The notes under the pieces: model-generated | The model's input: the letters and a program-made list of their open reading frames with translations, nothing else | Told to the model about the DNA's origin: nothing | The model's database searches: none | Shown: positions 45-37,666 of the stretch, piece after piece | How the letters are laid out: each line of letters starts with the position of its first letter | Numbering within the stretch: the stretch's first letter is position 1 | Position numbers and translations under genes: made by a program | Source: a virus | DNA: 37,666 bases | Virus genome (UHGV): UHGV-0324630 | Reading direction: 5' to 3' (one strand)

Positions 45-99
45 TGGTACCCGGAGCGGGACTTGAACCCGCACAGCGCGAACGCCGAGGGATTTTAAA
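45..99 (-). tRNA. Partial tRNA-Leu (UAA-type) 3' fragment, about 55 nt; probable prophage att core, not an intact tRNA gene
   Basis: Minus-strand reading gives ...TTTAAAATCCCTCGGCGTTCGCGCTGTGCGGGTTCAAGTCCCGCTCCGGGTACCA: long class-II variable arm, T-arm GGTTCAAGTCC, acceptor 3' strand and CCA. Matches my memory of E. coli leuZ from the anticodon loop to the CCA end. The 5' half (acceptor 5' strand, D-arm) is absent; sequence diverges at position 100. Confidence 0.7.
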
Positions 100-119
100 A
101 ACTATCAACCACCATTTAT

Positions 120-139
120 AAATCATAACCTTATGATTT
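120..139. repeat. Perfect inverted repeat AAATCATAA-cc-TTATGATTT between att core and int 3' end
   Basis: Read directly: 9-bp arms, 2-bp spacer. Could be an int terminator hairpin or an arm-type protein-binding site. Confidence 0.4.
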
Positions 140-205
140 TATTAACTTTGAAAATGGCTCTATACAACGCCATTTGAATCTATTGTCACTTTTTATCGCC
201 ACTTT

Positions 206-1207
206 TTACCCTCTATTGTCAAAAGGGTTCAATTCAACAGCAGCCTCTAAATGACCTGGAGCAAAATGCGCATAACGCATAGTCATTTTTATATCGCTAT
301 GCCCCAGTATTTTTTGCAACACAAGAATATTTCCGCCCCGCATCATAAAATGACTGGCAAACGTGTGACGTAGCACATGAGTTAATTGCCCATCAGGAAG
401 CTCGATCTTCGCTCTCTTAATTGCAGCGTCAAAAGCCTCATAACATGGTGAAAATAGCGCTCCTCGTTTTTTAGGAAGCATAGCTTGCAATTGAGGTGAA
501 ATCGGTACAGTGCGGTTCTTCTTTCCTTTAGTTTTAACAAATGTGATTCGACCGGGCAGTACTTGAGATTGCTTTAATCCTTCTGCTTCACTCCACCGAG
601 CACCAGTCGCAAGCCCAATACGGACAACAACCCCCAAATCTTTATTCCGTGACTCATCACACGCAATCAGAAGGCGTTCAATCTCATCTACATACAGAAA
701 CGCCAGTTCCTTTTCTTCCTCACGAAACTTGCGAATACCAGTCAGGGGGTTTTCACCAGACCACTCCCCAAGGCGCTTCAGTTCGGCAAAAACAGCATGT
801 AGATATGACTGCTCGCGATTAACGGTTGCTTCACTAAGTTTTTTCTTCCCCTTGGGATTCCATTCTCCTGATAGCCTTCTTTCCCGATAAGTAGCAAACA
901 TATTTTTGTCAAACTGAGAAGCAAATGGATCTCCCAGCCTGGAACAAATCGCCTCAAGTTTGACTTTGCGCTCTGCACCAGAGGACAAGGTTTTACCGTA
1001 CATCTCAAACCAACGAGCAATCAACTCAGAAAGACGAGGACCAGAACCATCTTGAAACTCGTCTCCAACTCTACTATTCATTAAACGGCGCTCATAAGAG
1101 AGCGCCTCACTTTTTGTCGCAAACTGTTTACGAATGCGTTTTCCCGATGCCCCGTAGGGATAACATTCGCAAAGCCATTTACCTGATGGAATCTTACGAA
1201 CCGACAT
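206..1207 (-). CDS. int: Tyrosine-type site-specific integrase (P2/P4 phage integrase family)
   Basis: 333-aa ORF; C-terminal catalytic region ...LRHTFASHFMMRGGNILVLQKILGHSDIKMTMRYAHF with the R..H..R..Y pattern typical of phage tyrosine recombinases; lies next to the tRNA-derived att core. Confidence 0.92.
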   Translation of the reverse strand: MSVRKIPSGKWLCECYPYGASGKRIRKQFATKSEALSYERRLMNSRVGDEFQDGSGPRLSELIARWFEMYGKTLSSGAERKVKLEAICSRLGDPFASQFDKNMFATYRERRLSGEWNPKGKKKLSEATVNREQSYLHAVFAELKRLGEWSGENPLTGIRKFREEEKELAFLYVDEIERLLIACDESRNKDLGVVVRIGLATGARWSEAEGLKQSQVLPGRITFVKTKGKKNRTVPISPQLQAMLPKKRGALFSPCYEAFDAAIKRAKIELPDGQLTHVLRHTFASHFMMRGGNILVLQKILGHSDIKMTMRYAHFAPGHLEAAVELNPFDNRG

Positions 1208-1212
1208 TTTAG

Positions 1213-1560
1213 TTACTTATCACATAAATCAAATGCAGCCTTAGTGACATCCCCCAGACTCTTTTTTAACCCTGGGGCGGCATCATTATCTAGCCAAAAT
1301 GGATTATTGTTATCTAACGGTAACGCACCAAATGTTTTACCTTTTATTCGAGCCAAACCTGTAAGTGCATATAACTTATTATCGTCAAAATTCATCACAT
1401 AAGGATTACCATCAAGACACTGTAATTGAACCTCATCAGTATTAAATGGCCATACCCCATTGAAACTCTCACGTTCAATAGTTTTAAAAGGCATTGCGAC
1501 GGCGGAAAAAGAAAACATAGATAAAAAAGTAACTAATAGTTGAACCTTTTTTACTTTCAT
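1213..1560 (-). CDS. Small secreted protein with N-terminal signal peptide, function unknown (cargo gene 5 nt upstream of int)
   Basis: 115-aa ORF; N-terminus MKVKKVQLLVTFLSMFSFSAVAMP is signal-peptide-like; two Cys in the mature part; GAGGT RBS 6 nt upstream; stop is 5 nt from the int start codon. Confidence 0.6.
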   Translation of the reverse strand: MKVKKVQLLVTFLSMFSFSAVAMPFKTIERESFNGVWPFNTDEVQLQCLDGNPYVMNFDDNKLYALTGLARIKGKTFGALPLDNNNPFWLDNDAAPGLKKSLGDVTKAAFDLCDK

Positions 1561-1589
1561 ATCATTACCTCAATTTAGCTCAAGTAAGA

Positions 1590-2240
1590 TTACAAATTAA
1601 AAAACGCCCTAGAAATGACACCGCCTACCAAAACCCCTACGCAGATAAAGAATATTATTTCTTTTGGATAAAGTCGGATTAATTCTGAAGCACGAAGTCG
1701 GACTTCTGGTAAGGTCGAACTCTCTGTGTGGCTTGATGCCGATTGTTGCTCTAACCACGACAATGCAGACTGTAACTGAGAACGAGTAAGATCGTTTAAA
1801 CGTCCTGTACCGAAATTGATATGGCAATACCGCAGAAGTTTTTGTCGAAGTCCACAGTCTTCACTGTTACGTAGTAATAAACTTACAAGAGCCTTACAGG
1901 CATCATGATCTTTACATCGCTCAAGCATTGCATGCAGAAAACTCTCCGCTGTTTTATATTGATTTACTGTCATATCATCAATACCAGCTACACCAATCTC
2001 CGCATGTACTTTTTGCCAAATAATAAACGCTTCAGTATTGCTAGCTTCTGCAATAGCAGCAACCAAGCTATTTAGCTCCTTACGCTGAGCCTTAAGCAAA
2101 GGGCGATCGTCATCATCATTATTCGAAGGGATTGCGATATTGACGGTATGAGAACCATCATATCGCTCTATCTGAATATTCTTTTCGTGAAAATCACGCC
2201 CAGCAACGCGATTGTTTGAACCGTTTGAGTTGACGGCCAT
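1590..2240 (-). CDS. Hypothetical protein with C-terminal transmembrane anchor; N-terminus shares an NNR[IV]AGRD[YF] motif with the upstream HTH protein
   Basis: 216-aa ORF; GGAGGTGA RBS; C-terminal hydrophobic stretch IIFFICVGVLVGGVISRAFF; N-terminal NSNGSNNRVAGRDFHE resembles the C-terminal ISGGNNRIAGRDYNE of the ORF at 2256..2660. Confidence 0.6.
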   Translation of the reverse strand: MAVNSNGSNNRVAGRDFHEKNIQIERYDGSHTVNIAIPSNNDDDDRPLLKAQRKELNSLVAAIAEASNTEAFIIWQKVHAEIGVAGIDDMTVNQYKTAESFLHAMLERCKDHDACKALVSLLLRNSEDCGLRQKLLRYCHINFGTGRLNDLTRSQLQSALSWLEQQSASSHTESSTLPEVRLRASELIRLYPKEIIFFICVGVLVGGVISRAFFNL

Positions 2241-2255
2241 GTCACCTCCCTACTA

Positions 2256-2660
2256 TCACCTACCCTTAGTTTCGTTATAGTCACGACCAGCGATACGGTT
2301 ATTACCACCAGAAATATTTAACTCACGTCCTGATGGCTGAGTTTCCTTTTCACTGATCGCACCTTTTAAAGCCCCAATCACCGCGTTTTTCACATCTAAC
2401 GAAGCTGCTCGAAAGCGAGTAATCAATTCCTGCTCATCATCGTTATAAGTTTCAGGTGAGTGAATTCCCAACACAACATACTGAACATCAAGGCCAAAAC
2501 GAGACAGCGCTGCCAAATACGCAGCATCAGGAAAGCTATCTCCTTTCTCATATCTAAGCTGAGTTAGCTTTTTGACTCCACCAATGTCGCTCATGGCAAC
2601 TTGACTAAGTCCCAATCTTTCCCTTTCCTCACGCAACCGCTGACCAATATCATTTTTCAT
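2256..2660 (-). CDS. XRE-family helix-turn-helix transcriptional regulator; probable lysogeny repressor (P2 C / 186 CI functional analogue)
   Basis: 134-aa ORF; N-terminal IGQRLREERERLGLSQVAMSDIGGVKKLTQLRYEKG is a typical XRE HTH; transcribed divergently from the RHH/Cox-like genes and toward int, as in P2-like immunity regions. Confidence 0.8.
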   Translation of the reverse strand: MKNDIGQRLREERERLGLSQVAMSDIGGVKKLTQLRYEKGDSFPDAAYLAALSRFGLDVQYVVLGIHSPETYNDDEQELITRFRAASLDVKNAVIGALKGAISEKETQPSGRELNISGGNNRIAGRDYNETKGR

Positions 2661-2669
2661 ACAAAAACC

Positions 2670-2698
2670 TTGACAGGTATCTTTTTTGATACCAAAAT
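2670..2698 (+). promoter_or_regulatory. Candidate rightward early promoter (TTGACA, 17-bp spacer, CAAAAT) with embedded operator-like inverted repeat GGTATC-tttttt-GATACC (2676..2693)
   Basis: Perfect -35 hexamer TTGACA at 2670-2675; weak -10 at 2693-2698; perfect 6-bp inverted repeat occupies the spacer; sits in the 75-bp repressor/RHH intergenic region. Confidence 0.35.
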
Positions 2699-2735
2699 GA
2701 TTTCACGAGCTATTAGATGATCACAATATACCACT

Positions 2736-2942
2736 ATGAAACAAGTTCTTCACGATACCAGATCACGCATTCCGCGTAACACCGCCACAGGTCCAAGACT
2801 GGCACTTCGGCTGTCCCTCGAGGAGCGAGCCGTCATTGATGAAATGGCAGCTAAAGAACAACGCTCATCCTCTAACATGGCGCGCATGATCTTCCTTCGC
2901 GGCCTAGAGCTAACCCAGAAAGAACAAAACAAATCTTCCTGA
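2736..2942 (+). CDS. Ribbon-helix-helix (CopG/Arc-like) small DNA-binding protein, first gene of the rightward early operon
   Basis: 68-aa ORF; RLALRLSLEERAVIDEMAAKEQRSSSNMARMIFLRGLE fits a beta-strand/helix/helix RHH pattern. Confidence 0.65.
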   Translation: MKQVLHDTRSRIPRNTATGPRLALRLSLEERAVIDEMAAKEQRSSSNMARMIFLRGLELTQKEQNKSS

Positions 2943-2958
2943 TCAGGAGGCTAGTGGG

Positions 2959-3162
2959 ATGTCAGGTATAACCATCAATATCAATGTGAATGCCCCCTAT
3001 GTATCCCTGCAGAAATATGCAGAGATAACAGGTATCCCTCTTAATACATGCAAAAAGATGTTGGCTGACGGTCGAATTATTATCCGCCCCAAACGCGCCA
3101 AAATGGAAAAGCCTGAAGTAAACCTTGTGGCGATGTTAAAAGACGCTTTGGCTAACAGCTAA
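2959..3162 (+). CDS. Cox/excisionase-like small HTH DNA-binding protein
   Basis: 67-aa ORF with strong AGGAGG RBS; YVSLQKYAEITGIPLNTCKKMLADGRI resembles the P2 Cox / AlpA-Xis HTH region (from memory). Confidence 0.65.
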   Translation: MSGITININVNAPYVSLQKYAEITGIPLNTCKKMLADGRIIIRPKRAKMEKPEVNLVAMLKDALANS

Positions 3163-3183
3163 AACAATGAACAGAGCACCATC

Positions 3184-3534
3184 ATGAAAAAAAACGCTAA
3201 TAATCCATACTCCAAATTTCGTAATGGCGTAGAACGCCATGTACACCACGTCGCTACCAGTGCATCACGTAGTAACAGTCGCTATAACCTGAACGAGACG
3301 CACGCAACACCGGATGGCCACGCTGTAAAACAAATCGGCGAACATGCCTGGCTGATTGAGAAAGCTGGAATCGTGGTCCACAAATGCCCACACAATCCGT
3401 TTACCGGAAACCGCATTTTTGCATTGAACTGCGGCGACAATCACTTCGGGCAGGATTTCACATTATACGAAGCACTTCGCACGGTTGATCGTCTGCTTCG
3501 CGGGCAAAGTTTTATTAAACAGGCTGATTTATAA
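3184..3534 (+). CDS. Hypothetical early protein
   Basis: 116-aa ORF in the early operon; no motif recognised. Confidence 0.55.
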   Translation: MKKNANNPYSKFRNGVERHVHHVATSASRSNSRYNLNETHATPDGHAVKQIGEHAWLIEKAGIVVHKCPHNPFTGNRIFALNCGDNHFGQDFTLYEALRTVDRLLRGQSFIKQADL

Positions 3535-3544
3535 CAGGTGCTTT

Positions 3545-3824
3545 ATGACCAAAGAGCATGCACAAGGTGTATTTATCCGTTTTATTGATTTTCGCGGTGA
3601 ACTGTTATTACGCGCATCAGCCATTGACGGAGTTGTTCCATCCGAAAAAAAACGCAGCTACTTACGTTTATCTGAACGGTACGCGCCTGACTGTGGAGCT
3701 TCCGTACCAGACCGTACGAGAAATCATTAGCGAAGCTGAAAAGGCACGTCAGGTTAATGGCGATGAACCCTATATCGAAATTATTTGTATGGATTCAGAA
3801 GCTGAAATTCAGAAAGCAGATTAA
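3545..3824 (+). CDS. Hypothetical early protein split between two frames at an A8 homopolymer (3645..3652); frameshifted gene or homopolymer sequencing error
   Basis: Frame A (ATG 3545, RBS AGGTG) reads MTKEHAQGVFIRFIDFRGELLLRASAIDGVVPSEKK then ends at 3730; the +1 frame continues ...NAATYVYLNGTRLTVELPYQTVREIISEAEKARQVNGDEPYIEIICMDSEAEIQKAD to 3824. Removing one A from the A8 run fuses them into a single ~91-aa ORF that fills the gap between flanking genes. Confidence 0.45.
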
Positions 3825-3835
3825 AGGGCGTTGCG

Positions 3836-4078
3836 ATGGGCAAAGAATATAAAACTCTCATTAACAAAGCACTTGAACGATTTTATTTTCGCTTAAGTGC
3901 ATCAGGCGCTCATGCTGAACGTGCAGCCCGTGACTCATTGACCAGGGCAATCCGGAGTTTGTATGACGTTGCTTTTTACGCTGATGATCTGGATGCACTT
4001 AACGAACTTTCCGAGCTGATCTGTGCCGCAGAATGCGGGGAACACATTGAACCATATAAGCTGGGGAATATCGCATGA
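3836..4078 (+). CDS. Hypothetical early protein
   Basis: 80-aa ORF; its stop overlaps the next start (ATGA). Confidence 0.55.
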   Translation: MGKEYKTLINKALERFYFRLSASGAHAERAARDSLTRAIRSLYDVAFYADDLDALNELSELICAAECGEHIEPYKLGNIA

Positions 4079-4188
4079 GTATATTTATCTCATGGCTTGT
4101 TCTGATTATTTCGGTGGCCTGCGCCATTGGGATTATGCGAATTATTCATTCAGTAAAAAAGATTGAACGCTTTTTCACTGACAAATAA
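4075..4188 (+). CDS. Small hydrophobic peptide (37 aa, single predicted TM helix); not in the supplied ORF track
   Basis: ATG at 4075 overlaps the preceding stop (ATGA); translation MSIFISWLVLIISVACAIGIMRIIHSVKKIERFFTDK, stop TAA 4186-4188. Confidence 0.4.
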   Translation: MSIFISWLVLIISVACAIGIMRIIHSVKKIERFFTDK

Positions 4189-4280: not shown

Positions 4281-4697
4281 ATGAACGCAAAAGAAAAAAA
4301 TATTATCAATACATTAAAAATAGTGTCAGCAGAGCAAGACAAGCTGTCCAGGGCAGCCCAGAAAGATAATCAACATATGGCAGCGCTTTACGCACTGACC
4401 ATCGCAATAGCCACCTCTGAAGCAGCCAAAGTTATTGAGGAACAGAGCAAAGAAATCGACACTCTTAAAACACAGTCAACAGTTGCAGCCATGAATCCGT
4501 CCAGCATTGGACGCTGCATTTATATTCTTGGTTCAGCAATGATGCTGCAATACACCATTATTGCCGAACTGCACGGCAAATACCTGATAACGCCTTACCA
4601 CACAAAAGAGTCAGAGCTTCTGACAAATCTCCGCCTGATAGAACGCTCTCAAGCTGTATTCATTGATGACGCGCAACGTGCCGTATTTAACGCATAG
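4281..4697 (+). CDS. Hypothetical early protein
   Basis: 138-aa ORF with GGAG RBS. Confidence 0.6.
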   Translation: MNAKEKNIINTLKIVSAEQDKLSRAAQKDNQHMAALYALTIAIATSEAAKVIEEQSKEIDTLKTQSTVAAMNPSSIGRCIYILGSAMMLQYTIIAELHGKYLITPYHTKESELLTNLRLIERSQAVFIDDAQRAVFNA

Positions 4698-5187: not shown

Positions 5188-5483
5188 GCACCATCAACCA
5201 CCAGAAGCTACGCGAACTGGCATTTGCCCTGCAACGAATGGCAACGCCTCAAAAATTACTGGCATTTCGCGCAATGCTCTCGCCGTCTGCTGTGCTGGCA
5301 CTGCTGGATCAGCTGGAGCACGCCAGAACCACGGCTCCAGCCATTCGCCTCACGCTCCATCATGAAATCGCTGATTTCTGCGCAACGCTGGGGGCACCTG
5401 GCGAACCGGAAACGCCGGAAGCAATGCAGCAAGAGCTGCTGCAACGCATCGATAACGTTTTTGATTTTTTTCTGAACCAGTAA
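5184..5483 (+). CDS. Hypothetical early protein
   Basis: 99-aa ORF, ATGA-coupled to the upstream gene. Confidence 0.55.
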   Translation: MSTINHQKLRELAFALQRMATPQKLLAFRAMLSPSAVLALLDQLEHARTTAPAIRLTLHHEIADFCATLGAPGEPETPEAMQQELLQRIDNVFDFFLNQ

Positions 5484-5605
5484 GAAACCAGAACATGCAC
5501 ACACAAAAAAACCGCTTGCCATGCCGCAATCGGTCAGGTTACATTTCCGCTGCACCTCATAAAACGGGTGCCGGGATTCTCAACCCGATACAGAGCAAAG
5601 CGCAT

Positions 5606-5626
5606 AACCGCGCTAGCGGTTTTTTT
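5606..5626 (+). terminator. Intrinsic terminator-like hairpin (AACCGC-gcta-GCGGTT followed by a T-run)
   Basis: GC-rich 6-bp stem, 4-nt loop, then about 7 T; 123 nt downstream of the stop at 5483. Confidence 0.5.
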
Positions 5627-5805
5627 GTGCGTACTGTATTGCCACGTCTTTTTCGCGTCAGAATTATGGCGGGGCGTACGGGGCCGACTTCGGTCGGGCC
5701 GGATTCTTTGCTCTCCGGTGTTGAGAACCCTGTACGTCTCGCCACCCCGAGATTCTCAACTCTGGATGGTGAGTTATTTCTATCACCGAGCAAAGAGGCC
5801 ACACC

Positions 5806-6036
5806 ATGGCAGACCGCAAACAGCACCGCGCTATCGCGGAGCGTCGTCACATCCAGACTGAAATCAACCGCAGACTTTCCCGCGCATCACGCGTCGCGCA
5901 AATCATGCACATCAATATGCTGCATGAGCGCAGCCACGCACTATCAAACATTTATTCCGCCTCTGTTTTCAGCTATCTGGCGGATGATCTGCACGAGTTT
6001 CAACAGCTCATCCAGCAGCAAAACAAACTCCATTAA
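5806..6036 (+). CDS. Hypothetical small basic protein upstream of the replication genes
   Basis: 76-aa ORF with AAGAGG RBS 7 nt upstream. Confidence 0.55.
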   Translation: MADRKQHRAIAERRHIQTEINRRLSRASRVAQIMHINMLHERSHALSNIYSASVFSYLADDLHEFQQLIQQQNKLH

Positions 6037-6108
6037 TTCCTGTTCCGGGCCTTTCCTGCACCTTGCGGCGGGAGGCCTTCGCACATCTGTAACAAGAGGA
6101 TTGCCGCA

Positions 6109-6474
6109 ATGATTCTCGCCAACGACTTTCTTGAATACCTGCTCAACACAGAACGTGATCTTGCCGCTCGCGTGCGTGATCGTTATGACATGTACCTGAA
6201 ATCCCTGCCTGTACCGCAGCTCGCTGACGGAAAGATTGTTATTGATGGTCGCTACATGATTGACAGCCACGAGGGAAATTACAGGCTTTACCGCATTGAA
6301 GGTGGCACCCCGACCGTTATTGGCATTTACCAGCGCCCATCCTCTGCAATCGTCGATGTGATTGCCGACAGCATCCGCATCACACATCGCCATGCCGACA
6401 CAGAAGACACCGTGCTGGAAATTCAGCGGCTGGCTACAGCCTGCCGCGACACCCTGAATGGCATGACGAAGTAA
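6109..6474 (+). CDS. Hypothetical protein preceding gpA
   Basis: 121-aa ORF with AGAGGA RBS. Confidence 0.6.
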   Translation: MILANDFLEYLLNTERDLAARVRDRYDMYLKSLPVPQLADGKIVIDGRYMIDSHEGNYRLYRIEGGTPTVIGIYQRPSSAIVDVIADSIRITHRHADTEDTVLEIQRLATACRDTLNGMTK

Positions 6475-9379: not shown

Positions 9380-10339
9380 ATGAAAATTTGTATCGACGAC
9401 GGCTCCACCAACATCAAGCTGGCATGGACTGAGAACGGCGAACGCCGCAACGCCATCAGCCCGAACAGCTTCAAGTCGGAATGGTCTGCGCCGTTCGGTG
9501 GCACGCAGCCCGCGAACTACATGCTTGATGGCGTGCGCTATGGTTTTGATCCTGTCAGCGATCGCTTTGTCCAGACGACCGACACGCAATACCAATACAG
9601 CGATGTGAATGTCATTGCCATTCATCACGCGCTGGTCAAATCAGGCATCACGCCACAGGAGGTGGATGTGGTTGTCACCCTGCCACTGAGCGAGTATTTC
9701 GACACAAACGCACAGCCGGACATGGCCAACATCAACCGCAAAAAAGCGAACGTTATGCGCCCGGTGGAGTACCAGAACGGCAAAGCATTCACTATCCGTA
9801 ACGTACGGGTTATGCCTGAATCTATTCCGGCTGGCTTTAAAGCACTGGCTGACATGAGTCCGTTTGAATCCCTGCTGATTGTGGATTTAGGCGGAACCAC
9901 GCTGGATGTGGCAAAGGTTCAGGGACAACTGGCAGGTATCAGCCAGGTGTTTTGCGATCCACACGTAGGCGTTTCCCTGATGGCCGATGCAGTACTGTCG
10001 GTGATGGCCACTAACGGTATGCGTACCAGTCACCACATCGCCAATACCATTATCGAACATCGCCATGATGAAGCTTGGCTGCGCCAGCACATCCACAATG
10101 ACGCGCATTACGCCAGCCTGATGGCGGTTATTCGTGAAAAGGAAGAAACACTGAAACAACGCGTGATCCGCGCGCTGGCGGGTTTTTCGGGTTACGGGCG
10201 GGTGATGGTTGTCGGTGGCGGAGCGGAGATTGTGGCACCCGCTATCCGCGAAGCCTGCGGGGTTAATGCGACTTTCATCGCGGACGGGGTGCCACAGTTT
10301 GCTCTGGTTAATGGGCTGTACGCAATGGACAAGGAGTAA
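9380..10339 (+). CDS. parM: ParM/StbA-family actin-like ATPase (type II partition NTPase)
   Basis: 319-aa ORF; N-terminus MKICIDDGSTNIKLAW...ISPNSFKSEW...YQYSDVNVIAIHHAL and later PESIPAGF, IVDLGGTTLD, FSGY..VMVVGGGAE align closely with my memory of plasmid R1 ParM (MLVFIDDGSTNIKLQW...ISPNSFKREW...). Confidence 0.9.
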   Translation: MKICIDDGSTNIKLAWTENGERRNAISPNSFKSEWSAPFGGTQPANYMLDGVRYGFDPVSDRFVQTTDTQYQYSDVNVIAIHHALVKSGITPQEVDVVVTLPLSEYFDTNAQPDMANINRKKANVMRPVEYQNGKAFTIRNVRVMPESIPAGFKALADMSPFESLLIVDLGGTTLDVAKVQGQLAGISQVFCDPHVGVSLMADAVLSVMATNGMRTSHHIANTIIEHRHDEAWLRQHIHNDAHYASLMAVIREKEETLKQRVIRALAGFSGYGRVMVVGGGAEIVAPAIREACGVNATFIADGVPQFALVNGLYAMDKE

Positions 10340-11723: not shown

Positions 11724-11795
11724 GTCTTGCGCTCATTAAAATTTCCCTGCTACGAACAAATTTACCATCCGTTTTTTGCGCAGAAAACAGCACGA

Positions 11796-11828
11796 TGCAC
11801 ACTGCACGATAGTGCACAAATTTGCACA
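11796..11828. repeat. Four helically phased TGCAC(A) repeats in the non-coding region between the cargo gene and portal gene (probable cos/packaging region)
   Basis: TGCAC at 11796, 11803, 11813, 11823, with a fifth at 11895; flanked by TTTTYTGCGC motifs at about 11773 and 11913. Confidence 0.3.
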
Positions 11829-22036: not shown

Positions 22037-22039
22037 ATC

Positions 22040-27438: not shown

Positions 27439-27933
27439 TCAGAACAGCCCTTTAACTGAACTGGCCGCGCTGTTAAGGGATGATGTCACTTTATCTTTGA
27501 AGCCGGACAGCATATCGCTGAACGATGAGGATTGCAGGCGCTCCCGCAAATCCTCATCACAGCGTTCAAGGGTCAGTGAAAATTCTATCTTTTTCGCCTT
27601 ACCGTAGCGATCAAACTCGGAACGGGTCGTATTCGTTTCGGTCAGGACATACATGCCGTAAATCTGCCCGACGCCATCAATAAGAGGCCAGGGGCGTCCT
27701 GTATACGCCTGCGTGGTCAGCAGCGACAGCGACACTTCGCCACCTGTAATTTCAGGATAAAGCACACCAGAAAGAACGATGCGATCATCACCTGCACCGA
27801 TATACTGCCAGCTTGCTGAACGGTTAACGCGTTCATTTTTCACATGCCGCCAGCTTTTGTTTTGCTGTAACTGCTGATGCGGCAGCGTGCGCAGCTCAAA
27901 AACAAACATGCCGTAGATCATCATCATGGCCAT
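27439..27933 (-). CDS. U: Tail protein U, P2 gpU-like
   Basis: MAMMMIYGMFVFELRTLPHQQLQQNKSWRH...VLYPEITGG...WPLIDGVGQIYGMYVLTE resembles P2 gpU from memory. Confidence 0.85.
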   Translation of the reverse strand: MAMMMIYGMFVFELRTLPHQQLQQNKSWRHVKNERVNRSASWQYIGAGDDRIVLSGVLYPEITGGEVSLSLLTTQAYTGRPWPLIDGVGQIYGMYVLTETNTTRSEFDRYGKAKKIEFSLTLERCDEDLRERLQSSSFSDMLSGFKDKVTSSLNSAASSVKGLF

Positions 27934-27939
27934 GACTCC

Positions 27940-30783: not shown

Positions 30784-31263
30784 GCCAGCTAACCACTTCG
30801 CCGGGCGTCATCATGAAGATTTCGGCGGGCGACCAGTTAAAAATGGCGGCAATATCCGCCACCAGATCTTCGATGTGCTCAAAGCACACCAGGGTGATTA
30901 CGCTGCCGTCTCCTGCACGCTCTTCGCGCCAGAGTCTGGCTCGCTCATAAAATTTACAGCCACAGCGCACAACTGAATAAAATCGCGTGACGACATTTTT
31001 TTAATCATCACTTCATCCAGTCGTGGCGAGGTCACGCGAGGCAACAGCGTGAACATGGTATCCGCTTTCAGATTCAGCACATCAGACAGCGACAGACCAC
31101 GCAGGGATCCAGCCTGCTCAATAGCCCCGGTGATCTCCACATACGTGATTTTTTCGCCACCACGCTCAATTGGTCGGGTCAGTTTTACGCCACGCTCGCT
31201 GGTTTCTTTCACAGTGTCAGCAACGACCGTATTTTCGGTATCGATGTTTTTCGTCACTTTCAT
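30734..31263 (-). CDS. Tail assembly chaperone gpE+E' (predicted -1 programmed frameshift product)
   Basis: The -1 frame is open from inside the A7 run to 30734 and overlaps the tape measure start, the classic G/GT, E/E' arrangement. Confidence 0.6.
30898..31263 (-). CDS. E: Tail assembly chaperone gpE
   Basis: 121-aa ORF downstream of the tube gene; its 3' end holds an A7 slippery run and overlaps a -1-frame ORF (E'). Confidence 0.8.
   Translation of the reverse strand: MKVTKNIDTENTVVADTVKETSERGVKLTRPIERGGEKITYVEITGAIEQAGSLRGLSLSDVLNLKADTMFTLLPRVTSPRLDEVMIKKMSSRDFIQLCAVAVNFMSEPDSGAKSVQETAA
30996..31002 (-). promoter_or_regulatory. Candidate -1 ribosomal frameshift (slippery) site: A7 on the coding strand (AUU AAA AAA AUG)
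   Basis: Seen directly as T7 on the plus strand; the -1 frame carries a TAA just upstream and is open only from within the A-run. Confidence 0.5.
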
Positions 31264-31317
31264 CAGGAAACTCCTTTCAGTCAGAGGCGACGCACTGCGC
31301 CGCCTGCATATTACTTA

Positions 31318-31830
31318 TCAGCCAAGCCCGAGCGCGGAACGGATGCGATCGGGCACAATGTCCTTGCCGTCCTTCCGGTAAATGAAGTTCAGCAGGTCAA
31401 TCTCCCACAACGGGCGATCGTTAACACTCAGCTTGTAGTAGGTGTTTTTAATGGCGTAAGTGTGTGATGTGGCTTCGCCCTGTTTGGCTTCCCCCATATC
31501 AATTTCCGTCACACGTCCGCGCATTTCGACTTCATACAGGTCGCTTTCATCATCGGTGTAGTATTCACCCGCAAAACGCAGTAGCGTGCCGTCAATCGTG
31601 CCGCCATACTTCAGGAACAGCTCACGAACTGCGCCCCCCATGACAAAGCTCGCATCAAGCGCGGAGTCGTCCAGACCGAGATCAATACTTACCGCCCCCA
31701 TCATGCCACCACCCCGGTAGCTGTCGGTTTTGCGCGTCAGTTTAGGCAGGGTGACGGACGTCACCTTACCCACTTCGTTTTCACCATCCACAAACAGCGT
31801 AAAAAAGCGAAGATGTTTTGGTACAGCCAT
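31318..31830 (-). CDS. FII: Tail tube protein, P2 gpFII-like
   Basis: 170-aa ORF immediately downstream of the sheath gene on the minus strand. Confidence 0.88.
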   Translation of the reverse strand: MAVPKHLRFFTLFVDGENEVGKVTSVTLPKLTRKTDSYRGGGMMGAVSIDLGLDDSALDASFVMGGAVRELFLKYGGTIDGTLLRFAGEYYTDDESDLYEVEMRGRVTEIDMGEAKQGEATSHTYAIKNTYYKLSVNDRPLWEIDLLNFIYRKDGKDIVPDRIRSALGLG

Positions 31831-33014
31831 CAGGCACCTCCCAGCACCGCAAATGCGGGACCAAAGAATTCATCAGTAAACGACTGGTAAAGCTCCATGT
31901 CTTCCAGCGGAGGAACGGGCGTATATTTGTAGCGAATACGCACACGCCCCTGACGTAAATTCGTGGTGCTGTTATCCACGATGTCATACCAGCACTCCGC
32001 GCCAATCAGTTTCCCGGCAGTAACCAGTGAATCCAGTTTTGCCCTGATGGCACTGATAACATCCTTCACGTTCGCAGGCGTCAGTGGACTGTCGATGGTT
32101 TCAAACTGCGCTTCCGCAATTGAATCAGCCAGCACCTGTGCAGTTCGGGTATACACCTCAAAGATGTAGGCGTTCGTTTCCGGTGTGCGGTTGCCCCAGA
32201 AGCGGAACCCGTTGCGACGAATAATGGTCGTGATTTCTTTGTTGTTGAGGCTGTTGGCATCGCTGTCTTCGGCCTGCAACGACCAGAACACATGCCTGGA
32301 CATCCCCAGCACATTTTTAACCGGAACATTGGACAGTGATTTGTGCCATCCCTGCTCATGGTCAATGTACGCACGAAGGCCGCACGCATAGGCAGGCGCG
32401 GGGAACGTTTCGTTTTTGCCACTTTTCGGGTTGTAGGCGATGAAGTCCGGCCATAAGAGCATCACCTCACGTTCATTGAATTTCTGGCGGTAGGTAATCG
32501 CCTCAGCCATCGTGTTACAGCCGTGACATGAGGCATACACAAACGCGCGCAGTTTACCCGCAATCACGCACAGGGATTTTGTTACCGCCTCCGTATCCAG
32601 CTCCGGCGCGGCCAGAATACGCGGACGGTATCCGATGCTTTCATCCTGCTCTGCAACAAGCAGCGCATACATCCCCGTATAGCTGCCGTCAGATTCAGAA
32701 CCACCGATAACCAGTTGATCCTGCGTTTTTCCGTCTTCTTCTTTGTGTTCAGCCACGCGAACGACGATCACCTTTGTGCTCACCTGGTCTGCGATGGCCT
32801 TAAGCGCACGATAAAGCGTCCCCGTTGTTCCGCATTTTCCCAGCACGTCATTGACGCGGGTCAGCAGTGTGGGCTTGTTCAGCGGGAACAGCTCCGCGTC
32901 CGCATCATCCGCCATTGCCACGATACCGATAACACTGGAATCAACATCATTAATCGCTGTTACCAGGTCGGTACTTTCCGTAACACGGGCACCATGAAAA
33001 CGAGTTTCACTCAT
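31830..33014 (-). CDS. FI: Contractile tail sheath protein, P2 gpFI-like
   Basis: 394-aa ORF; size and position match P2 FI (about 396 aa). Confidence 0.9.
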   Translation of the reverse strand: MSETRFHGARVTESTDLVTAINDVDSSVIGIVAMADDADAELFPLNKPTLLTRVNDVLGKCGTTGTLYRALKAIADQVSTKVIVVRVAEHKEEDGKTQDQLVIGGSESDGSYTGMYALLVAEQDESIGYRPRILAAPELDTEAVTKSLCVIAGKLRAFVYASCHGCNTMAEAITYRQKFNEREVMLLWPDFIAYNPKSGKNETFPAPAYACGLRAYIDHEQGWHKSLSNVPVKNVLGMSRHVFWSLQAEDSDANSLNNKEITTIIRRNGFRFWGNRTPETNAYIFEVYTRTAQVLADSIAEAQFETIDSPLTPANVKDVISAIRAKLDSLVTAGKLIGAECWYDIVDNSTTNLRQGRVRIRYKYTPVPPLEDMELYQSFTDEFFGPAFAVLGGA

Positions 33015-33171: not shown

Positions 33172-34281
33172 ATGACCGATACCACCATGCAATTGCTCAG
33201 TCAGGGCACAGACCCCGTGAAAATGCCGGATTTTGATATTCTCGCGGAGGGTAAAACGCTGTCAGGCGTGGCAGAGCGCCTGATGAGCCTGTCACTGACC
33301 GACAACCGGGGATTTGAGGCGGACCAGCTCACCATCACGCTGGATGATGCGGATGGTCAGTTGCAGCTACCGCCACGGGGCGCGCGCCTGACGGTTCTCA
33401 TTGGCTGGAAAGGAGAACCGCTGACAGAAAAAGGCACTTACATTGTTGATGAAATCGCTCACGAAGGACCGCCGGACAGGCTGACTGTTTCAGCCAGAAG
33501 CGCAGATTTTCGGGATGAATTTAACGTTAAACGTGAAGTGTCCTGGCATGATGTGACCGTTGAGCGCGTGGTATCCGCCATCGCTCATCGGTATGGTCTG
33601 AAACCGCAAATCAGCGAAATGCTGATGGATATCGAAATCGACCACGCCGACCAGACCGAAGAAAGCGACATGTCCTTCCTCACGCGCATGGCGGAAATGC
33701 TGGGCGCAATCACCACGGTAAAAAGCGGTAACCTGTTATTCATCATGCCCGGCGGTGGCGTGAACGCACAGGGCCAGCCGTTGCCCTCGTTCGCCATCAC
33801 ACGCAGCAGCGGCGATCGCCATCAGTTCCGCATTGCTGACCGCGAAGCGTATACGGGGGTACGCGCTTACTGGCTTGATCTTAATTACGGGAAAAAGAAA
33901 AAAGTCAGCGTGAAACGCCGCAAACCGCCAAAACCCAAAAAGGAGAAAAGCAGCAGCCGTGAAGGTGATTATATGGAAGGCGCAGAAGGCAATGTGTTTG
34001 TGTTACGCAAGACTTATCAGAACGAGCAGGCAGCAAGACGCGCAGCGGCGGCAAAGTGGCAGCAGCTACAACGCGGAGCCGCATCATTTTCCATCACGCT
34101 GGCGCGTGGACGTGCAGAACTCTACCCCGAAATGCATGGCACGGTAACAGGATTTAAAAGCGAGATTGATAATCAGGACTGGATTATTGCAAAAGCCGAG
34201 CACACTATTGATGACAGTGGCTTTACCACACAGCTTGAGCTTGAAGCAAAAATCCCGGAATGGATAGCGGAAACAGAATGA
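33172..34281 (+). CDS. D: Tail/late control protein D, P2 gpD-like
   Basis: Start taken at ATG 33172 (GGAGGG RBS); about 369 aa. The track's upstream extension from 33040 overlaps the sheath-gene upstream region and is rejected. Confidence 0.88.
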   Translation: MTDTTMQLLSQGTDPVKMPDFDILAEGKTLSGVAERLMSLSLTDNRGFEADQLTITLDDADGQLQLPPRGARLTVLIGWKGEPLTEKGTYIVDEIAHEGPPDRLTVSARSADFRDEFNVKREVSWHDVTVERVVSAIAHRYGLKPQISEMLMDIEIDHADQTEESDMSFLTRMAEMLGAITTVKSGNLLFIMPGGGVNAQGQPLPSFAITRSSGDRHQFRIADREAYTGVRAYWLDLNYGKKKKVSVKRRKPPKPKKEKSSSREGDYMEGAEGNVFVLRKTYQNEQAARRAAAAKWQQLQRGAASFSITLARGRAELYPEMHGTVTGFKSEIDNQDWIIAKAEHTIDDSGFTTQLELEAKIPEWIAETE

Positions 34282-34680
34282 GCAAATTAGATGTATTGAC
34301 TCAAACCAGAACTGACACACTCACAGCACAGTGCCAGACCCAATCTGGCAGCCCGCTTTGTGCCTAGAGCAGGTGTTGCTTATGTAACAGTTAATCCACG
34401 GATAGTGGTCATGAATGCTGGTTGAAGTTGTATTGCCATGAGTGGTCAATTAGGGACTCACTTATTATCGCGTGCTCACCATTGATGGGTAAGATCATGC
34501 ATTTCGGCTACTGTACTTCGCGAATCCTCCACACACAGGCAACACCTGATTTAAGAACAGAGGGAGATGATGACGCAAGGAAGATTTATTATCGTGCATG
34601 TGGCAGATGATCTTTTAGCTGCCGGAGTGATAAATTACACCTATTTTCGATAAGTGTTTTTGTTATAGAACATTAATTTC

Positions 34681-35820
34681 GTGGGAAACAATAAAGTGAA
34701 ATTAGGAAGAAATGATAAGTGCTGGTGTAATTCAGGACTTAAGTATAAAAAGTGCCATCTTGGTCGAGACCGTGAAACTCCGGTATCCAAAGCCGAGGCA
34801 CTGAAATTTTCAAAGTCTCTCTCGCAGAGAAAGGCATGTTATGCGCCAGCATCCATGCACGAAGATTGTGATAAACGCATCGTTCAGGCGCATACGATAT
34901 CTAAGAGCAGTAGCCTTAAGGCGATCGCCGACTCCAGCAATCACGTCATGGGGGTGATAATGAACTTAGCAAGCCTGATGAGAAACAACGGAAAATGGCT
35001 TCCCGAGAAGATCGGTATCAATCAGGCATCCACTTTTACAGGATTTTGTGCAGTTCATGACAGAATCTTGTTTTCATGCCTAGAGAACGAAAAATTTACA
35101 GGCACGGACGAGCAGTGCTTTGCCTTAATGTTTCGTTCATTGTCTAAAGAAATTTACGCCAAAGAAGGGGGAGTGCTATCTTCCGATTTTGCTAAAAATG
35201 CCGATAAAGGAAAGCTACAAGTTGAACAGTATTATATTCAGAAATTAATCGACCAGCACCAAAGTGGCTTAAATGCAGCAATAATTGAATTAAATAATCT
35301 TAAAACTAGCCTCGACCGCATCCTACTTAGCAGGCAATTTTCAGAAATTGAAAGTGTTATCTTCACTTTTGCAGAGCCTTTACCAATTGTAGTTTCGTCA
35401 ATTCTTTCACCGGAGAGGGATTTCGATGGGACCAAAATTCAGGATTTGAGCGATCTTACAGTGTCGGCGGAACAAGTATGTTTCAATGCTTTTTCCTGCG
35501 GAGGTAAGGGATATGTAGTGTTCAGTTGGCTGAGAACTTCAACAATTATCAGACGTTTTATACGGACACTAATTAAGATCCCGGCTAACAGGATGTTCAA
35601 TACCCTTCTGTATTTTTTCTTCACAAAGGCCGAAAATACATATTCATCCCCTGAGTGGTGGGACAGGCTCAGTGATAAACAGCGAGAGAATATCGGCAAC
35701 ATGATTATGTCAGGGGTTGAATTTTTTGGCAGACCTACATCACAGGTTGATCATTCCGTTGATTATAACGCCGCTGCACTTGAAGAGATAACATGCAGCA
35801 ACAACGAAATTTGCAGCTGA
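34681..35820 (+). CDS. Uncharacterised protein with N-terminal SEC-C-like zinc-binding motif (C-W-C-x8-C-H); AT-rich cargo gene inserted between gpD and ogr
   Basis: 379-aa ORF (GTG start, start uncertain; alternative GTG at 34696); N-terminal KCWCNSGLKYKKCH; rest unrecognised; strongly AT-rich with about 400 bp and about 290 bp non-coding flanks. Confidence 0.65.
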   Translation: MGNNKVKLGRNDKCWCNSGLKYKKCHLGRDRETPVSKAEALKFSKSLSQRKACYAPASMHEDCDKRIVQAHTISKSSSLKAIADSSNHVMGVIMNLASLMRNNGKWLPEKIGINQASTFTGFCAVHDRILFSCLENEKFTGTDEQCFALMFRSLSKEIYAKEGGVLSSDFAKNADKGKLQVEQYYIQKLIDQHQSGLNAAIIELNNLKTSLDRILLSRQFSEIESVIFTFAEPLPIVVSSILSPERDFDGTKIQDLSDLTVSAEQVCFNAFSCGGKGYVVFSWLRTSTIIRRFIRTLIKIPANRMFNTLLYFFFTKAENTYSSPEWWDRLSDKQRENIGNMIMSGVEFFGRPTSQVDHSVDYNAAALEEITCSNNEICS

Positions 35821-36109
35821 ATGTTTACATGCTGTTAGAAAAAGCGGGCTGAACAATCATTTCGGGATTGTAACAGATAAGATGGCACTGCCCGCTTGCT
35901 TCCCGATATGTACCTCAGCCAATAAACTTATGTAAGCAACCGATTTCCATTTATGCGGAGGTTATCAAAGTTGTTGGAGTTGCGAACTTCCGCTCTTCGC
36001 ACAAAGCGTACCGCTAGGTTTGATTGTATTCTGGCTGCGCAAACTGTCAGTTGGAGTCTGAGCTATTACAACTTAGAATAGCGGCAGCACCACGTTAAGG
36101 GAGGTCGCT

Positions 36110-36370
36110 ATGTTCCGTTGTCCGCTTTGTGGCGCATCTGCCCGAATCCGCACCAGTCGTCCGGAAAACGATTCAAACACTGTGCGGCAAAAGTATTACC
36201 AGTGTAACAACCTGGAATGCGGCGTATGCTTCTCAACACTGGAAGCTTTCCATAAATTCACATCAAAACACGCCTCCGGCGTTCACTCTTCGGAAGGTAT
36301 CCCGTGGCATGAGCTGCCAGCTTCACACAGGGGAAACAATCAGATGAGTTTGCCTTTACCTCAGAATTAA
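36110..36370 (+). CDS. ogr: Ogr/Delta-family zinc-finger late-gene transcription activator
   Basis: MFRCPLCGASARIRTSR...QKYYQCNNLECGVCFSTLE matches the P2 Ogr pattern (MFHCPLCQHAAHARTSR...RYHQCQNVNCSATF, from memory): C-x2-C ... C-x4-C zinc finger. Confidence 0.85.
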   Translation: MFRCPLCGASARIRTSRPENDSNTVRQKYYQCNNLECGVCFSTLEAFHKFTSKHASGVHSSEGIPWHELPASHRGNNQMSLPLPQN

Positions 36371-36561
36371 CAGGCAGAATTGCCGGAGTAACAAAAAAAC
36401 GATAGATTACCCGCGGGTGCCTTTCGGCTGATGGTCGGAGGGAATACCCGAAGGCCGGATGTGGAAAGGCCCCGGAAAACATTTCTGTTTAACCGAGGCC
36501 CTAACATATCTACCTTAAGCAAGTGATAGGTTAGCGCCTCTCCAACAAAGGAGCAAGCGCT

Positions 36562-36702
36562 ATGTCGCAAAAATCGCTTACGGCCATCACGTTCTGCGTG
36601 ACGGTAATCCTCATCATCTGGATGCTACACGGTTCGCTGTGTGAAATACGGATGAGCTTCTGGGGAGCGGAGTTTGCGGCGTTCTTACAGTGTAAGCAGT
36701 AA
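36562..36702 (+). CDS. Hok/Gef-family type I toxin (small membrane toxin)
   Basis: 46-aa ORF with AAAGGAG RBS: MSQKSLTAITFCVTVILIIWMLHGSLCEIRMSFWGAEFAAFLQCKQ; N-terminal TM helix then the SLCEIR motif characteristic of Hok/SrnB/PndA; not in the ORF track (below 60 aa). Confidence 0.8.
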   Translation: MSQKSLTAITFCVTVILIIWMLHGSLCEIRMSFWGAEFAAFLQCKQ

Positions 36703-36790
36703 GGAAACCGCGACGGGGGAGCAATCCCCCGTCAATCGGTTGCTAAGGTTGGCTGAAGTGGCACCCTATCTCACAGACATGAACAACAAA

Positions 36791-36822
36791 CCCGCAGCGT
36801 AAGAACTGCGGGTTTTCTTTTT
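36791..36822 (+). terminator. Intrinsic terminator (CCCGCAG-loop-CTGCGGG then TTTTCTTTTT) ending the hok-like transcript
   Basis: 7-bp GC-rich stem followed by a U-rich tract, read directly. Confidence 0.6.
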
Positions 36823-36890
36823 GGAACTATCACTAGCTAGTGTACCGTTAACGGCACATAATGCTCGCACAACAAACCTGTTAAAAGAGA

Positions 36891-37172
36891 TTACTCAGCA
36901 TTCTCCTGCTTCCATTGCCGGATCATTTCATCGGTAACATCACCCTCATAACATACCACGTCATACCCTCCATTACGGCTATATGCACTGCGTCCACCAC
37001 ATCTACTACCATTCCTTGCATGATTAAAAGGACACGCACAATTGCCTGGATAAGATTCAATGGATTCTTTAATTATTTCTTTTTTGATCTGAGCATCAGA
37101 CTTTCCTGTTGCTGCATATCCACTAAAAGATACTAAACAAAGGCAGATTGCCATTAATAAACCACATCGCAT
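36891..37172 (-). CDS. Small secreted cysteine-rich protein (signal peptide), unknown function; AT-rich
   Basis: Start taken at internal ATG (MRCGLLMAICLCLVSFSGYAA signal-like N-terminus); mature part has 5 Cys; true start uncertain (track ORF extends to 37286). Confidence 0.45.
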   Translation of the reverse strand: MRCGLLMAICLCLVSFSGYAATGKSDAQIKKEIIKESIESYPGNCACPFNHARNGSRCGGRSAYSRNGGYDVVCYEGDVTDEMIRQWKQENAE

Positions 37173-37453
37173 ACCGATACACTCTATTACTAACCAATCA
37201 TAGCCCACATCATAAAATCGAGATGAGGAGCACAATACCTTTAACAAGAAGGTGTCATAACGATAATATGTCGTGCAATTCATCAAAAAAAAGATCTATA
37301 TCAAAGAGATAGAACTCTTATCAGTGCTTCAGACATCGGCATTCGAGGCAGCAGAAAAACAGTAAATCTGACGAATTTGCCTTTTCCCAAGATGTTGTCA
37401 GATTAAAAAGATAGATTAGCGCAGGTACCTGTTGGTGGATTGCAGGAGGAAAA

Positions 37454-37558
37454 ATGAAGTCGAGTGGAAAAATCCCAGAAAAATTTTTGTTTAACAGAGG
37501 TCCTGGTTCACTATGCGAAATACGGAGGAGCTGCAGAAGAATTCTGCTTCATCCTTAG
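37454..37558 (+). pseudogene. Degenerate second hok-like copy: retains the GSLCEIR-encoding segment but lacks the hydrophobic N-terminal helix
   Basis: 34-codon ORF MKSSGKIPEKFLFNRGPGSLCEIRRSCRRILLHP; nucleotide similarity to the first hok copy (ggttcactatgcgaaatacgg vs ggttcgctgtgtgaaatacgg) with three synonymous third-position differences. Confidence 0.3.
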
Positions 37559-37644
37559 AGTTTAAACAGCACGTGCACTACCATTGTTTCTGCATATCGC
37601 CACACCATCGCCACTCTACCGCCATTGCACAAAATACAAATACG

Positions 37645-37666
37645 AAAAAACCACCCGAAGGTGGTT
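37645..37666. terminator. Hairpin AACCACC-cgaa-GGTGGTT preceded by A6 at the window edge; terminator-like (U-tract on the minus strand; plus-strand tail cut off by the window)
   Basis: Read directly; window ends inside the 3' arm. Confidence 0.35.

Follow-up and report, generated by a model that had tools for sequence, protein, structure and literature searches.

A P88-like Escherichia coli prophage with a putative Rugutis-family antiphage gene between D and ogr

Introduction

Phages of the P2 family exchange accessory genes at variable hotspots that are already well established (PMC9122126, PMC13586616, bioRxiv 10.1101/2024.10.15.618418). Rugutis (pUCCL633_059) is a single-gene antiphage system from the lactococcal plasmid pUCCL633, a protein of 359 amino acids (aa) with an N-terminal SEC-C motif, whose antiphage activity was demonstrated by experiment and whose fold is confidently predicted but has no counterpart in the PDB (PMC11381338). 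It acts after DNA entry (PMC12184496, PMC13064643); escape mutations in phage c2 lie within the large terminase's ATPase domain, and coexpression of the large terminase with Rugutis is toxic, as is that of the mutated terminase (PMC12184496). Here, we analyze UHGV virus genome UHGV-0324630, a stretch of 37,666 nucleotides (the whole of which we call the window). It is very probably one full genome unit of a P88-like temperate phage (Xuanwuvirus, Peduoviridae), apparently an intact Escherichia coli prophage located at the 3' end of the tRNA-Leu gene leuZ, beside yecA. Its differences from P2 would be a mixture of lineage traits and real accessory genes in known hotspots, and the gene found between D and ogr would be a homologue of Rugutis.

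The element as such is an ordinary and common type of E. coli prophage, and both its lineage and its variable hotspots were already known. What is new is the D-ogr gene, as a member of a defence family that has already been named but is so far uncharacterised in E. coli.

Results and discussion

The window is one genome unit of a P88-like prophage

Megablast searches with both halves of the window recovered deposited phages that cover 62 to 87% of each half at about 95% nucleotide identity, namely, Escherichia phages 520873, P88, P884B11, PhiR44_2, 500465-2, Chuche, and 705R2 and Citrobacter phage Shae_phiSM. All of them are Peduoviridae, and those classified to the genus level belong to Xuanwuvirus, except 500465-2, which is a Gemsvirus. 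About 76% of the window aligned with 520873 at about 95% identity (about 72% when identity is multiplied by coverage) and about 70% with P88 at about 95.5% (about 67%), the latter value being borderline for the genus. The threshold used in the practice of the International Committee on Taxonomy of Viruses is about 70%. Together with the nucleotide identity, the window has a gene set collinear with that of P88 and the architecture of the lineage (520873, P884B11, and Shae_phiSM included), with parMR after gpA, the FI-U block on the strand opposite to D, and hok after ogr. All 30-odd replication, packaging, head, lysis, and tail proteins of P88 are present at full length and in P88 order, with amino acid identities of 83 to 100%.

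There are also differences from these relatives. The integrase and immunity module is shared with 520873 only, an acetyltransferase gene replaces the DNA invertase and alternative fibre segment of most relatives, the D-ogr insert is unique to the window, and the cargo between gpA and the portal gene is different and decayed. The lipoprotein genes gp11 and gp12 of P88 are absent from the window.

A prophage of E. coli strain 631 shows only 2 mismatches to the window over the 37,666 positions. This copy sits between yecA and the tRNA genes leuZ-cysT-glyW, flanked by a 121-bp direct repeat that consists of the 3' part of the tRNA plus 66 bp, the latter including a terminator-like hairpin, and the two repeat copies are exactly 37,666 bp apart. 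Since the length of the window equals the period of the repeat, the window contains exactly one phage genome unit. The left attachment site (attL, 1-99) is part of this repeat, with positions 45-99 being an exact copy of nucleotides 33-87 of leuZ, while the first 22 bp of the other copy (attR) are found at 37645-37666, with the intact leuZ just outside the window. ARAGORN detected no complete tRNA in the window, and an 11-mer was all that a search for exact repeats shared by its two ends recovered, because the attachment (att) repeat is split across them; it was the comparison with the host genome that resolved the repeat. The boundaries proposed in an earlier sequence-only reading of this DNA (45-37666) are borne out by the tRNA-Leu copy and the att repeat.

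To separate conserved from variable DNA, we mapped the presence or absence of the window against the eight related phages in 200-bp steps, computed the G+C fraction of each segment, searched the conserved flanks in 5,426 complete E. coli genomes, and sampled RefSeq annotations among the genomes that matched. P88-like DNA (gpA/parM or D/ogr regions at at least 95% identity) was present in about 1,560 to 1,660 of the 5,426 genomes, in some cases as multiple copies. This places P88-like prophages among the commonest prophages of E. coli, in roughly 30% of its complete genomes.

An insertion sequence (IS)-disrupted prophage found at yecA-leuZ in O157:H7 PV15-279 has the same attachment site as the window and the same block of integrase, DUF2511, Flk-like, and repressor genes. 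It also has the same SEC-C gene between D and ogr (100% nucleotide identity over a 1,771-bp query), and its ogr and hok products are identical to those of the window (same RefSeq protein accessions). Unlike the window, its T and D genes are broken by IS1203/IS30, its cargo between gpA and the portal gene consists of a DUF4760 protein and a hypothetical protein, and it has a different fibre with a macro-domain gene. The O157:H7 prophage at this site is presumably CP-933T of EDL933.

The disrupted O157:H7 copy at the same site would fit the idea that the window, too, is a defective, decaying prophage in which the odd genes are debris rather than selected cargo, and so would three pseudogenes (3545-3824, 10719-11090, and 11193-11768) and a hok remnant. 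The first of these, an early gene coding for 92 aa in P88, is frameshifted, and PGAP annotates it as a pseudogene in strain 631. However, we consider general decay unlikely. The replication, packaging, head, lysis, tail, and regulatory genes in common with P88 are all full length, both att copies are intact, and the close relatives P88, PhiR44_2, Shae_phiSM, and Chuche have been deposited as phage genomes. Besides, the cargo outside the gpA-portal hotspot is made of intact open reading frames (ORFs), at least 99% conserved across many genomes.

The D-ogr gene codes for a Rugutis homologue

At the D-ogr junction there is an AT-rich insert of 1.77 kb (34290-36060, plus strand) that is absent from all eight related phages. 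It carries a gene (34681-35820, plus strand) for a protein of 379 aa, with an N-terminal SEC-C zinc motif (residues 10-27) and a body of unknown fold that has no further match in Pfam, PHROG, or NCBIfam. A tblastn search of plasmids with this protein led to pUCCL633A and a SEC-C protein of 359 aa encoded there, whose locus name and length fit those of Rugutis (PMC11381338). BLASTP aligned both proteins over 358 aa (E value of 2e-37, 26% identity), and hhalign over 345 columns (probability of 99.96%, E value of 7e-39). The AlphaFold2 model of the window protein is confident (predicted local distance difference test score of 89), with no significant match in the PDB, and a profile search of PDB sequences recovered only the 20-residue SEC-C motif.

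Like Rugutis, the window protein is a single protein of about 360 to 380 aa with an N-terminal SEC-C motif, it is homologous to it from end to end, including the invariant Cys, His, Asp, and Glu positions, and it is encoded by a solo gene on mobile DNA; a confidently predicted fold without a PDB counterpart is also common to both. They differ in sequence (26% identity), in the host, which is Gram negative in the case of the window, and in the type of element, a prophage instead of a plasmid. In addition, the fourth zinc ligand, Cys in Rugutis, is His in the window protein, and H88 is not conserved. On the basis of this homology, we assign the window protein to the Rugutis family.

A first search recovered 296 proteins of the family, and a profile search 1,471 clusters (at 50% identity) with E values of at most 1e-30, with members of about 370 aa. 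Gram-negative and Gram-positive members have the same invariant residues, C14, C16, C25, C53, C63, H71, G112, F122, C123, H126, D127, E135, R152, K161, D247, N319, and P324, and the Cys/His cluster formed by C53, C63, C123, and H126 could be a second metal site. The segment predicted as beta-hairpin and helix that contains G112, C123, H126, and D127 was also considered as an HNH/His-Me nuclease, a candidate that was dropped, as no structural or profile match was found. Other family members are solo genes with AbiH or VapBC as a neighbour, within a RES/HigB island, at one end of a Klebsiella prophage, or on conjugative plasmids, and some lie between housekeeping genes.

These last homologues would be consistent with a role other than defence, either as a metal-binding accessory factor of the YecA/SecA type or as a phage late-function or host-takeover protein beside ogr, and so would the name "YecA family protein" given by RefSeq and the fact that SecA, YecA, and YchJ are the best-known proteins with a SEC-C motif. 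Such a role seems improbable. The RefSeq/PGAP name derives solely from the SEC-C motif, and the protein does not belong to YecA/UPF0149, since only residues 4-40 match, at 18 to 23 bits against NCBIfam cutoffs of 140 to 267, and Pfam recognises nothing but SEC-C. The match to the SEC-C, YecA, YchJ, and SecA models is thus limited to about residues 4 to 40 and far below the family cutoffs, whereas the other 340 residues or so match none of these models and align end to end with Rugutis. Moreover, the absence of the gene from the eight related phages and from most of the sampled P88-like prophages argues against a phage core function, and in other prophages this slot is occupied by GmrSD/HNH, PIN, DUF3800, or HEPN-like genes.

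The D-ogr junction as a hotspot

The D-ogr junction is a single-gene hotspot that contains nuclease-type genes in sister prophages. For a sample spread evenly over the ranking of the 1,663 E. coli genomes that matched the D/ogr region, 38 rows had both flanks, and the junction was empty in 22, carried the SEC-C gene in 3, and carried other genes in the remaining 13. The order D, cargo, ogr, hok was confirmed in three prophages, with proteins of the types GmrSD_N plus HNH, PIN_4, and DUF3800 as the cargo, and phage 500465-2 has a weakly HEPN-like ORF at this position. In the papers on P2-family hotspots consulted here, the D-ogr junction is not treated as a discrete slot for single genes.

The SEC-C insert was found at at least 99% identity in 80 E. 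coli genomes, O157:H7 included. The mobile unit reaches about 300 bp upstream and about 150 bp downstream of the SEC-C ORF, and a copy at 83% identity is present in a P4-like island of Salmonella together with PARIS, as well as in an island of E. coli that has H-NS and AlpA. The Salmonella island (GCA_008101965.1, 5726-15694) codes for an integrase, AlpA, and a DUF927 primase; it combines the gene of the Rugutis family with a PARIS-type pair (AAA_15 ATPase and DUF4435) and so has two defence loci within one satellite-like element.

The sequence-only reading had recommended the element as a good place to look for undescribed defence functions and had suggested screening it with PADLOC. The expectation is supported at one locus, the Rugutis homologue in the D-ogr hotspot, although its function is not an undescribed one. 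The screen itself gave no system-level match: for the 20 accessory proteins analyzed, PADLOC 2.0 returned only matches at the level of HTH or SEC-C motifs, and it recognised none of the alternative D-ogr occupants (GmrSD_N plus HNH, PIN_4, DUF3800, and HEPN-like). However, Rugutis itself, used as a control, was not detected by PADLOC 2.0 either, so this result is uninformative about a role in defence.

Proposed mode of action

By analogy with Rugutis, the D-ogr protein would most likely act as a single-protein abortive-infection defence. The SEC-C protein would be present but inactive in the lysogen; the large terminase of a foreign phage, made late in infection, would activate it, and the activated protein would then arrest or kill the cell ahead of the release of progeny. 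More tentatively, and with somewhat less than even confidence, we propose that the D-ogr junction might be a discrete single-gene defence slot and its SEC-C occupant a functional Gram-negative Rugutis that senses foreign large terminases and tolerates the phage's own (gpP).

Several points weigh against these proposals. Defence by the E. coli protein is deduced from homology, at only 26% identity to Rugutis, and even in the case of Rugutis itself the trigger model is not complete, given that the mutated terminase is still toxic (PMC12184496). Because the phage encodes its own large terminase, a suicide gene triggered by terminase needs a self-tolerance that is as yet unexplained. A simple scan found no convincing promoter upstream of the SEC-C gene. 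The lack of a system-level match with PADLOC 2.0 could be listed here as well, but it carries no information, as stated above. The occupancy figures of the hotspot come from an evenly spaced sample of a ranking and are not a census. As for the rest of the element, the frameshift at 3545-3824 leaves the full viability of the phage uncertain, and the roles suggested below for the gene pair between the integrase and repressor genes, the acetyltransferase, and the secreted protein are read only from position, localisation signals, and family resemblance.

The assignment has, nevertheless, practical consequences. A protein named by RefSeq as "YecA family" in at least 80 E. coli genomes belongs to the Rugutis antiphage family, and the 2023 PADLOC models miss it. 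If the E. coli protein proved to be active, a lactococcal defence whose mechanism is unsolved would have been moved into the best host for phage genetics, providing a tractable E. coli system in which to study the fold and effector chemistry of a family of about 1,500 diverse clusters. It would also raise the question of how a terminase-sensing suicide protein spares its own phage.

Comparison with P2

The presence/absence map showed almost no DNA in common between the window and P2. In a tblastn search with all P2 proteins, the backbone proteins were 25 to 54% identical, with homologues of Q, P, O, N, M, L, X, R, S, V, W, J, I, H, G, FI, FII, E, T, U, D, ogr, int, and A in the window, whereas P2 C, cox, B, orf78-83, Y, K, lysA/B, orf30, old, tin, and fun had no similarity there. 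There is no strict synteny with P2 (Peduovirus), as the early and lysis genes lack a match and the FI-FII-E-T-U block lies on the opposite strand. The element integrates in a tRNA gene, unlike P2 with its attB. Common to both are the hotspots at the gpA-portal and fibre-adjacent (Z/fun) positions. Judged by these sequence comparisons, the proper reference for the element is P88, and it is P2-like at the family level only.

The sequence-only reading had used the gene order of P2 as its reference and described a P2-like prophage with at least six cargo insertions, most of them AT-rich: (i) between the repressor and int, (ii) after gene A, (iii) beside the fibre genes, (iv) between D and ogr, (v) after ogr, and (vi) as a small transmembrane (TM) peptide in the early operon. 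ORF and domain calls located every named feature at its implied place, and the label P2-like holds for the family, but not beyond it, with a backbone at about 95% nucleotide identity to Xuanwuvirus. Because the window shares so little with P2, measuring insertions against the P2 gene order mixes lineage architecture with real cargo. According to the eight-phage map, the P88 proteins, and the sampled E. coli annotations, the lineage has conserved parMR, hok, and the TM peptide, so the count of six cannot be maintained. The pair between int and C, the distal material between gpA and the portal gene, the acetyltransferase gene, the gene between D and ogr, and that of the secreted protein after hok do not belong to this core. 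Base composition follows the same division, as the truly variable pieces have G+C fractions of 0.35 to 0.45, against about 0.54 to 0.58 in the backbone, but parMR (0.55) and the hok locus (0.53) are not AT-rich. The claimed gpA-portal cargo exists, but here only as pseudogenes, even though this is the classical defence hotspot of P2. As for the hok copies after ogr, one is an intact hok, while the second is a remnant with an internal deletion. Two variable segments had been overlooked, the ORF at 4281-4697 and the segment at 5200-6000. Overall, roughly one half of the insertions claimed reflect the architecture of the lineage, and the rest fall in known variable hotspots.

A P2 backbone that took up at least six cargo insertions independently, each of them a possible carrier of some undescribed function in defence or conversion, is therefore very improbable, and for three of the six loci this reading is already largely refuted: genes absent from P2 do occupy all six places, five of the segments are AT-rich, and Rousset et al. 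list partition systems within the gpA-portal hotspot of P2-like phages generally (PMC9122126), but the backbone is P88-like, parMR, hok, and the TM peptide are 95 to 100% identical to the P88 proteins, recur in the sampled prophages, and have a backbone-like or lineage-typical composition, the gpA-portal material is pseudogenised, all cargo proteins bar the SEC-C protein belong to existing PHROG families, and the SEC-C protein is a member of Rugutis, a family that already had a name. Cargo has to be called with the proper lineage as the reference, here P88 and not P2.

Other variable loci

Apart from the 1.77-kb D-ogr insert, the truly variable AT-rich loci are the pair between int and C, the ORF at 4281-4697, two gpA-portal pseudogenes, the left-handed beta-helix acetyltransferase gene, and the gene of the secreted protein after hok. 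They fall at the published hotspot positions of the P2 family, and, as in the published cases, cargo is exchanged between otherwise near-identical phages; in contrast, the classical gpA-portal hotspot is effectively empty in the window. All cargo proteins other than the SEC-C protein are in existing PHROG families of unknown function.

The tyrosine integrase (206-1207, minus strand) is a leuZ-specific module with 39% amino acid identity to the integrases of P88 and P2. It is followed on the same strand by the gene of a DUF2511 (YebY-like) protein of 115 aa with a signal peptide (1213-1560, G+C fraction of 0.35), which among the eight relatives occurs in 520873 only, by that of a Flk-like protein of 216 aa with a C-terminal TM helix (1590-2240, phrog_5825), and by the repressor gene (2256-2660). 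The match of the Flk-like protein to the Flk model covers the first 150 residues of the latter and scores far below the cutoff, and a homologue search placed the protein in a large family of Enterobacterales without functional annotation. The whole integrase and immunity block (100-3300) is found among related phages in 520873 only, but it is a near-invariant unit in 516 E. coli genomes. Because int directly adjoins C in P88 and the other relatives, the Flk-like and DUF2511 genes are accessory at the level of the lineage. The spacers between the repressor, Flk-like, DUF2511, and integrase genes are of 16, 30, and 6 bp, and this tight packing on one strand suggests that the four would be cotranscribed in the lysogen. 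The tail-anchored Flk-like protein and the periplasmic DUF2511 protein are candidates for conversion or exclusion at the level of the envelope.

The C-terminal tail of the repressor (…GGNNRIAGRDYNE…, 2256-2330) closely resembles the N terminus of the product of the next gene (…GSNNRVAGRDFHE…, 2170-2240), both on the minus strand, and the motif is conserved across the Flk-like family.

The ORF at 4281-4697 (plus strand, 138 aa, phrog_9338) is a variable accessory gene that among the eight relatives is found in Shae_phiSM and 705R2 only. In the gpA-portal hotspot there are an ead/Ea22-like pseudogene with an internal stop (10719-11090, plus strand) and a frameshifted membrane-protein pseudogene (11193-11768, minus strand) that corresponds to the C-terminal part of phrog_1416 and has a G+C fraction of 0.385. 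In other prophages, sampled among the 1,565 genomes that matched this region, the gap between parR and the portal gene contains Doc/Phd, XF1762 plus ClpX-zf, DUF3800, PIN plus HTH, DUF4760, and others.

At the Z/fun position of P2, beside H and G, the window codes for a left-handed beta-helix (hexapeptide) acetyltransferase (26705-27268, minus strand, G+C fraction of 0.37). It matches Hexapep (E value of 1e-12) and, below the equivalog cutoffs, EpsC (1e-22) and CysE (2e-19); the nearest types are EpsC, CysE, and WcaB, and the best PDB matches are serine acetyltransferases. Relatives of this protein occur in other temperate phages. The same configuration is found in about 110 E. coli genomes, and others carry, for example, a family 9 glycosyltransferase at this place. 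The enzyme might modify surface polysaccharide. A resistance enzyme (Vat/CatB) was also considered and rejected, with model scores far below the cutoff.

The last variable gene, located between hok and att, codes for a cysteine-rich protein of 93 aa with a signal peptide (36891-37172, minus strand, phrog_27544).

Lineage-conserved architecture and backbone genes

Comparison with P88 identifies parMR, the inverted FI-U block, hok after ogr, the 37-aa membrane peptide, and the early/immunity region and lysis genes that differ from those of P2 as probable traits of the P88 lineage rather than cargo. The module formed by isrK, the C4 RNA, and the derepression protein is also a lineage trait, present in most relatives.

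The HTH immunity repressor has no similarity to the C proteins of P2 or P88. Divergent from it are two small early DNA-binding proteins (2736-3162, plus strand), annotated as Arc-like and Cox-like in phage 520873, followed by the lineage-conserved early genes (3184-4078, plus strand), which comprise DUF4761, the frameshifted 92-aa gene, and DUF4754. The peptide of 37 aa with a single TM helix (4075-4188, plus strand) is 95% identical to gp07 of P88.

The segment at 5200-6000, absent from 520873 and Chuche, holds an isrK-type small RNA (sRNA; 5552-5626, RF01394, 63 bits against an Rfam gathering score of 50) and a C4-type antisense RNA (5662-5749, RF01695, 78.5 bits against 45), upstream of the gene of a derepression-family protein of 76 aa (5806-6036), all on the plus strand. 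C4-type antisense RNA is the type used in the immunity of P1 and P7, and isrK is an Hfq-binding sRNA. Their back-to-back location just upstream of the derepression gene suggests an RNA-controlled antirepressor circuitry in P88-like phages. A mechanical ORF at 5495-6112 (205 aa) was rejected as a gene, as it covers the isrK and C4 RNA genes.

The replication protein gpA (6481-9303, plus strand) is 98% identical to that of P88, and after it comes a type II partition pair, parM (9380-10339) and parR (10344-10655), both on the plus strand. ParM has the StbA_N and ParM C-terminal domains (E values of 4e-82 and 1e-68), and ParR matches Plasmid_stab_B (2e-24). Among the sampled rows from the 1,565 matching E. 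coli genomes, nearly all had the pair annotated, and its proteins share 96 to 100% identity with those of P88; about one in four P2-like phages has been noted to carry partition genes.

The portal (Q) and large terminase (P) genes are on the minus strand (12254-15051), with P at 13300-15051. Another mechanical ORF, beside the portal gene (11762-12151, 129 aa), was rejected since it lies in a conserved noncoding region, which we assume to be the cos region. The head, lysis, tail-completion, and baseplate genes (O, N, M, L, X, holin, endolysin, R, S, V, W, J, and I; 15173-23456, plus strand) are all full length. They are followed by tail fibre H, of 885 aa with a conserved N terminus and a variable C terminus, and the fibre assembly protein G (23467-26741, plus strand). 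The first 207 residues of H (23467-24090) are 85% identical to P2 H, whereas the neighbouring proteins are only about 45 to 54% identical to those of P2, which points to a probable exchange of fibre modules between genera. The tail genes U, T, E', E, FII, and FI (27439-33014, minus strand) are inverted with respect to P2, as in P88.

Downstream of D lie the late-gene activator ogr (36110-36370, plus strand) and an intact hok coding for a Hok/Gef toxin (36562-36702, plus strand) that is 100% identical to that of P88 and matches HOK_GEF above the cutoff (E value of 4e-7); hok follows ogr in the sampled genomes as well. No hok/sok RNA family of Rfam reached its gathering score in the window. The deleted second copy of the hok locus (37405-37532, plus strand) retains a mok/leader-like sequence, joined directly to the "GSLCEIR" part of hok, and is located about 110 bp away from attR. 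An earlier rearrangement, or a previous prophage at this site, may have left it behind.

The tail/baseplate hub protein D (33172-34281, plus strand) is intact and 99% identical to D of P88. PGAP shortens it in several genomes to a 267-aa "VgrG/Pvc8 family" protein, but the full ORF of 369 aa is intact, so this looks like an annotation artefact and not a truncation.

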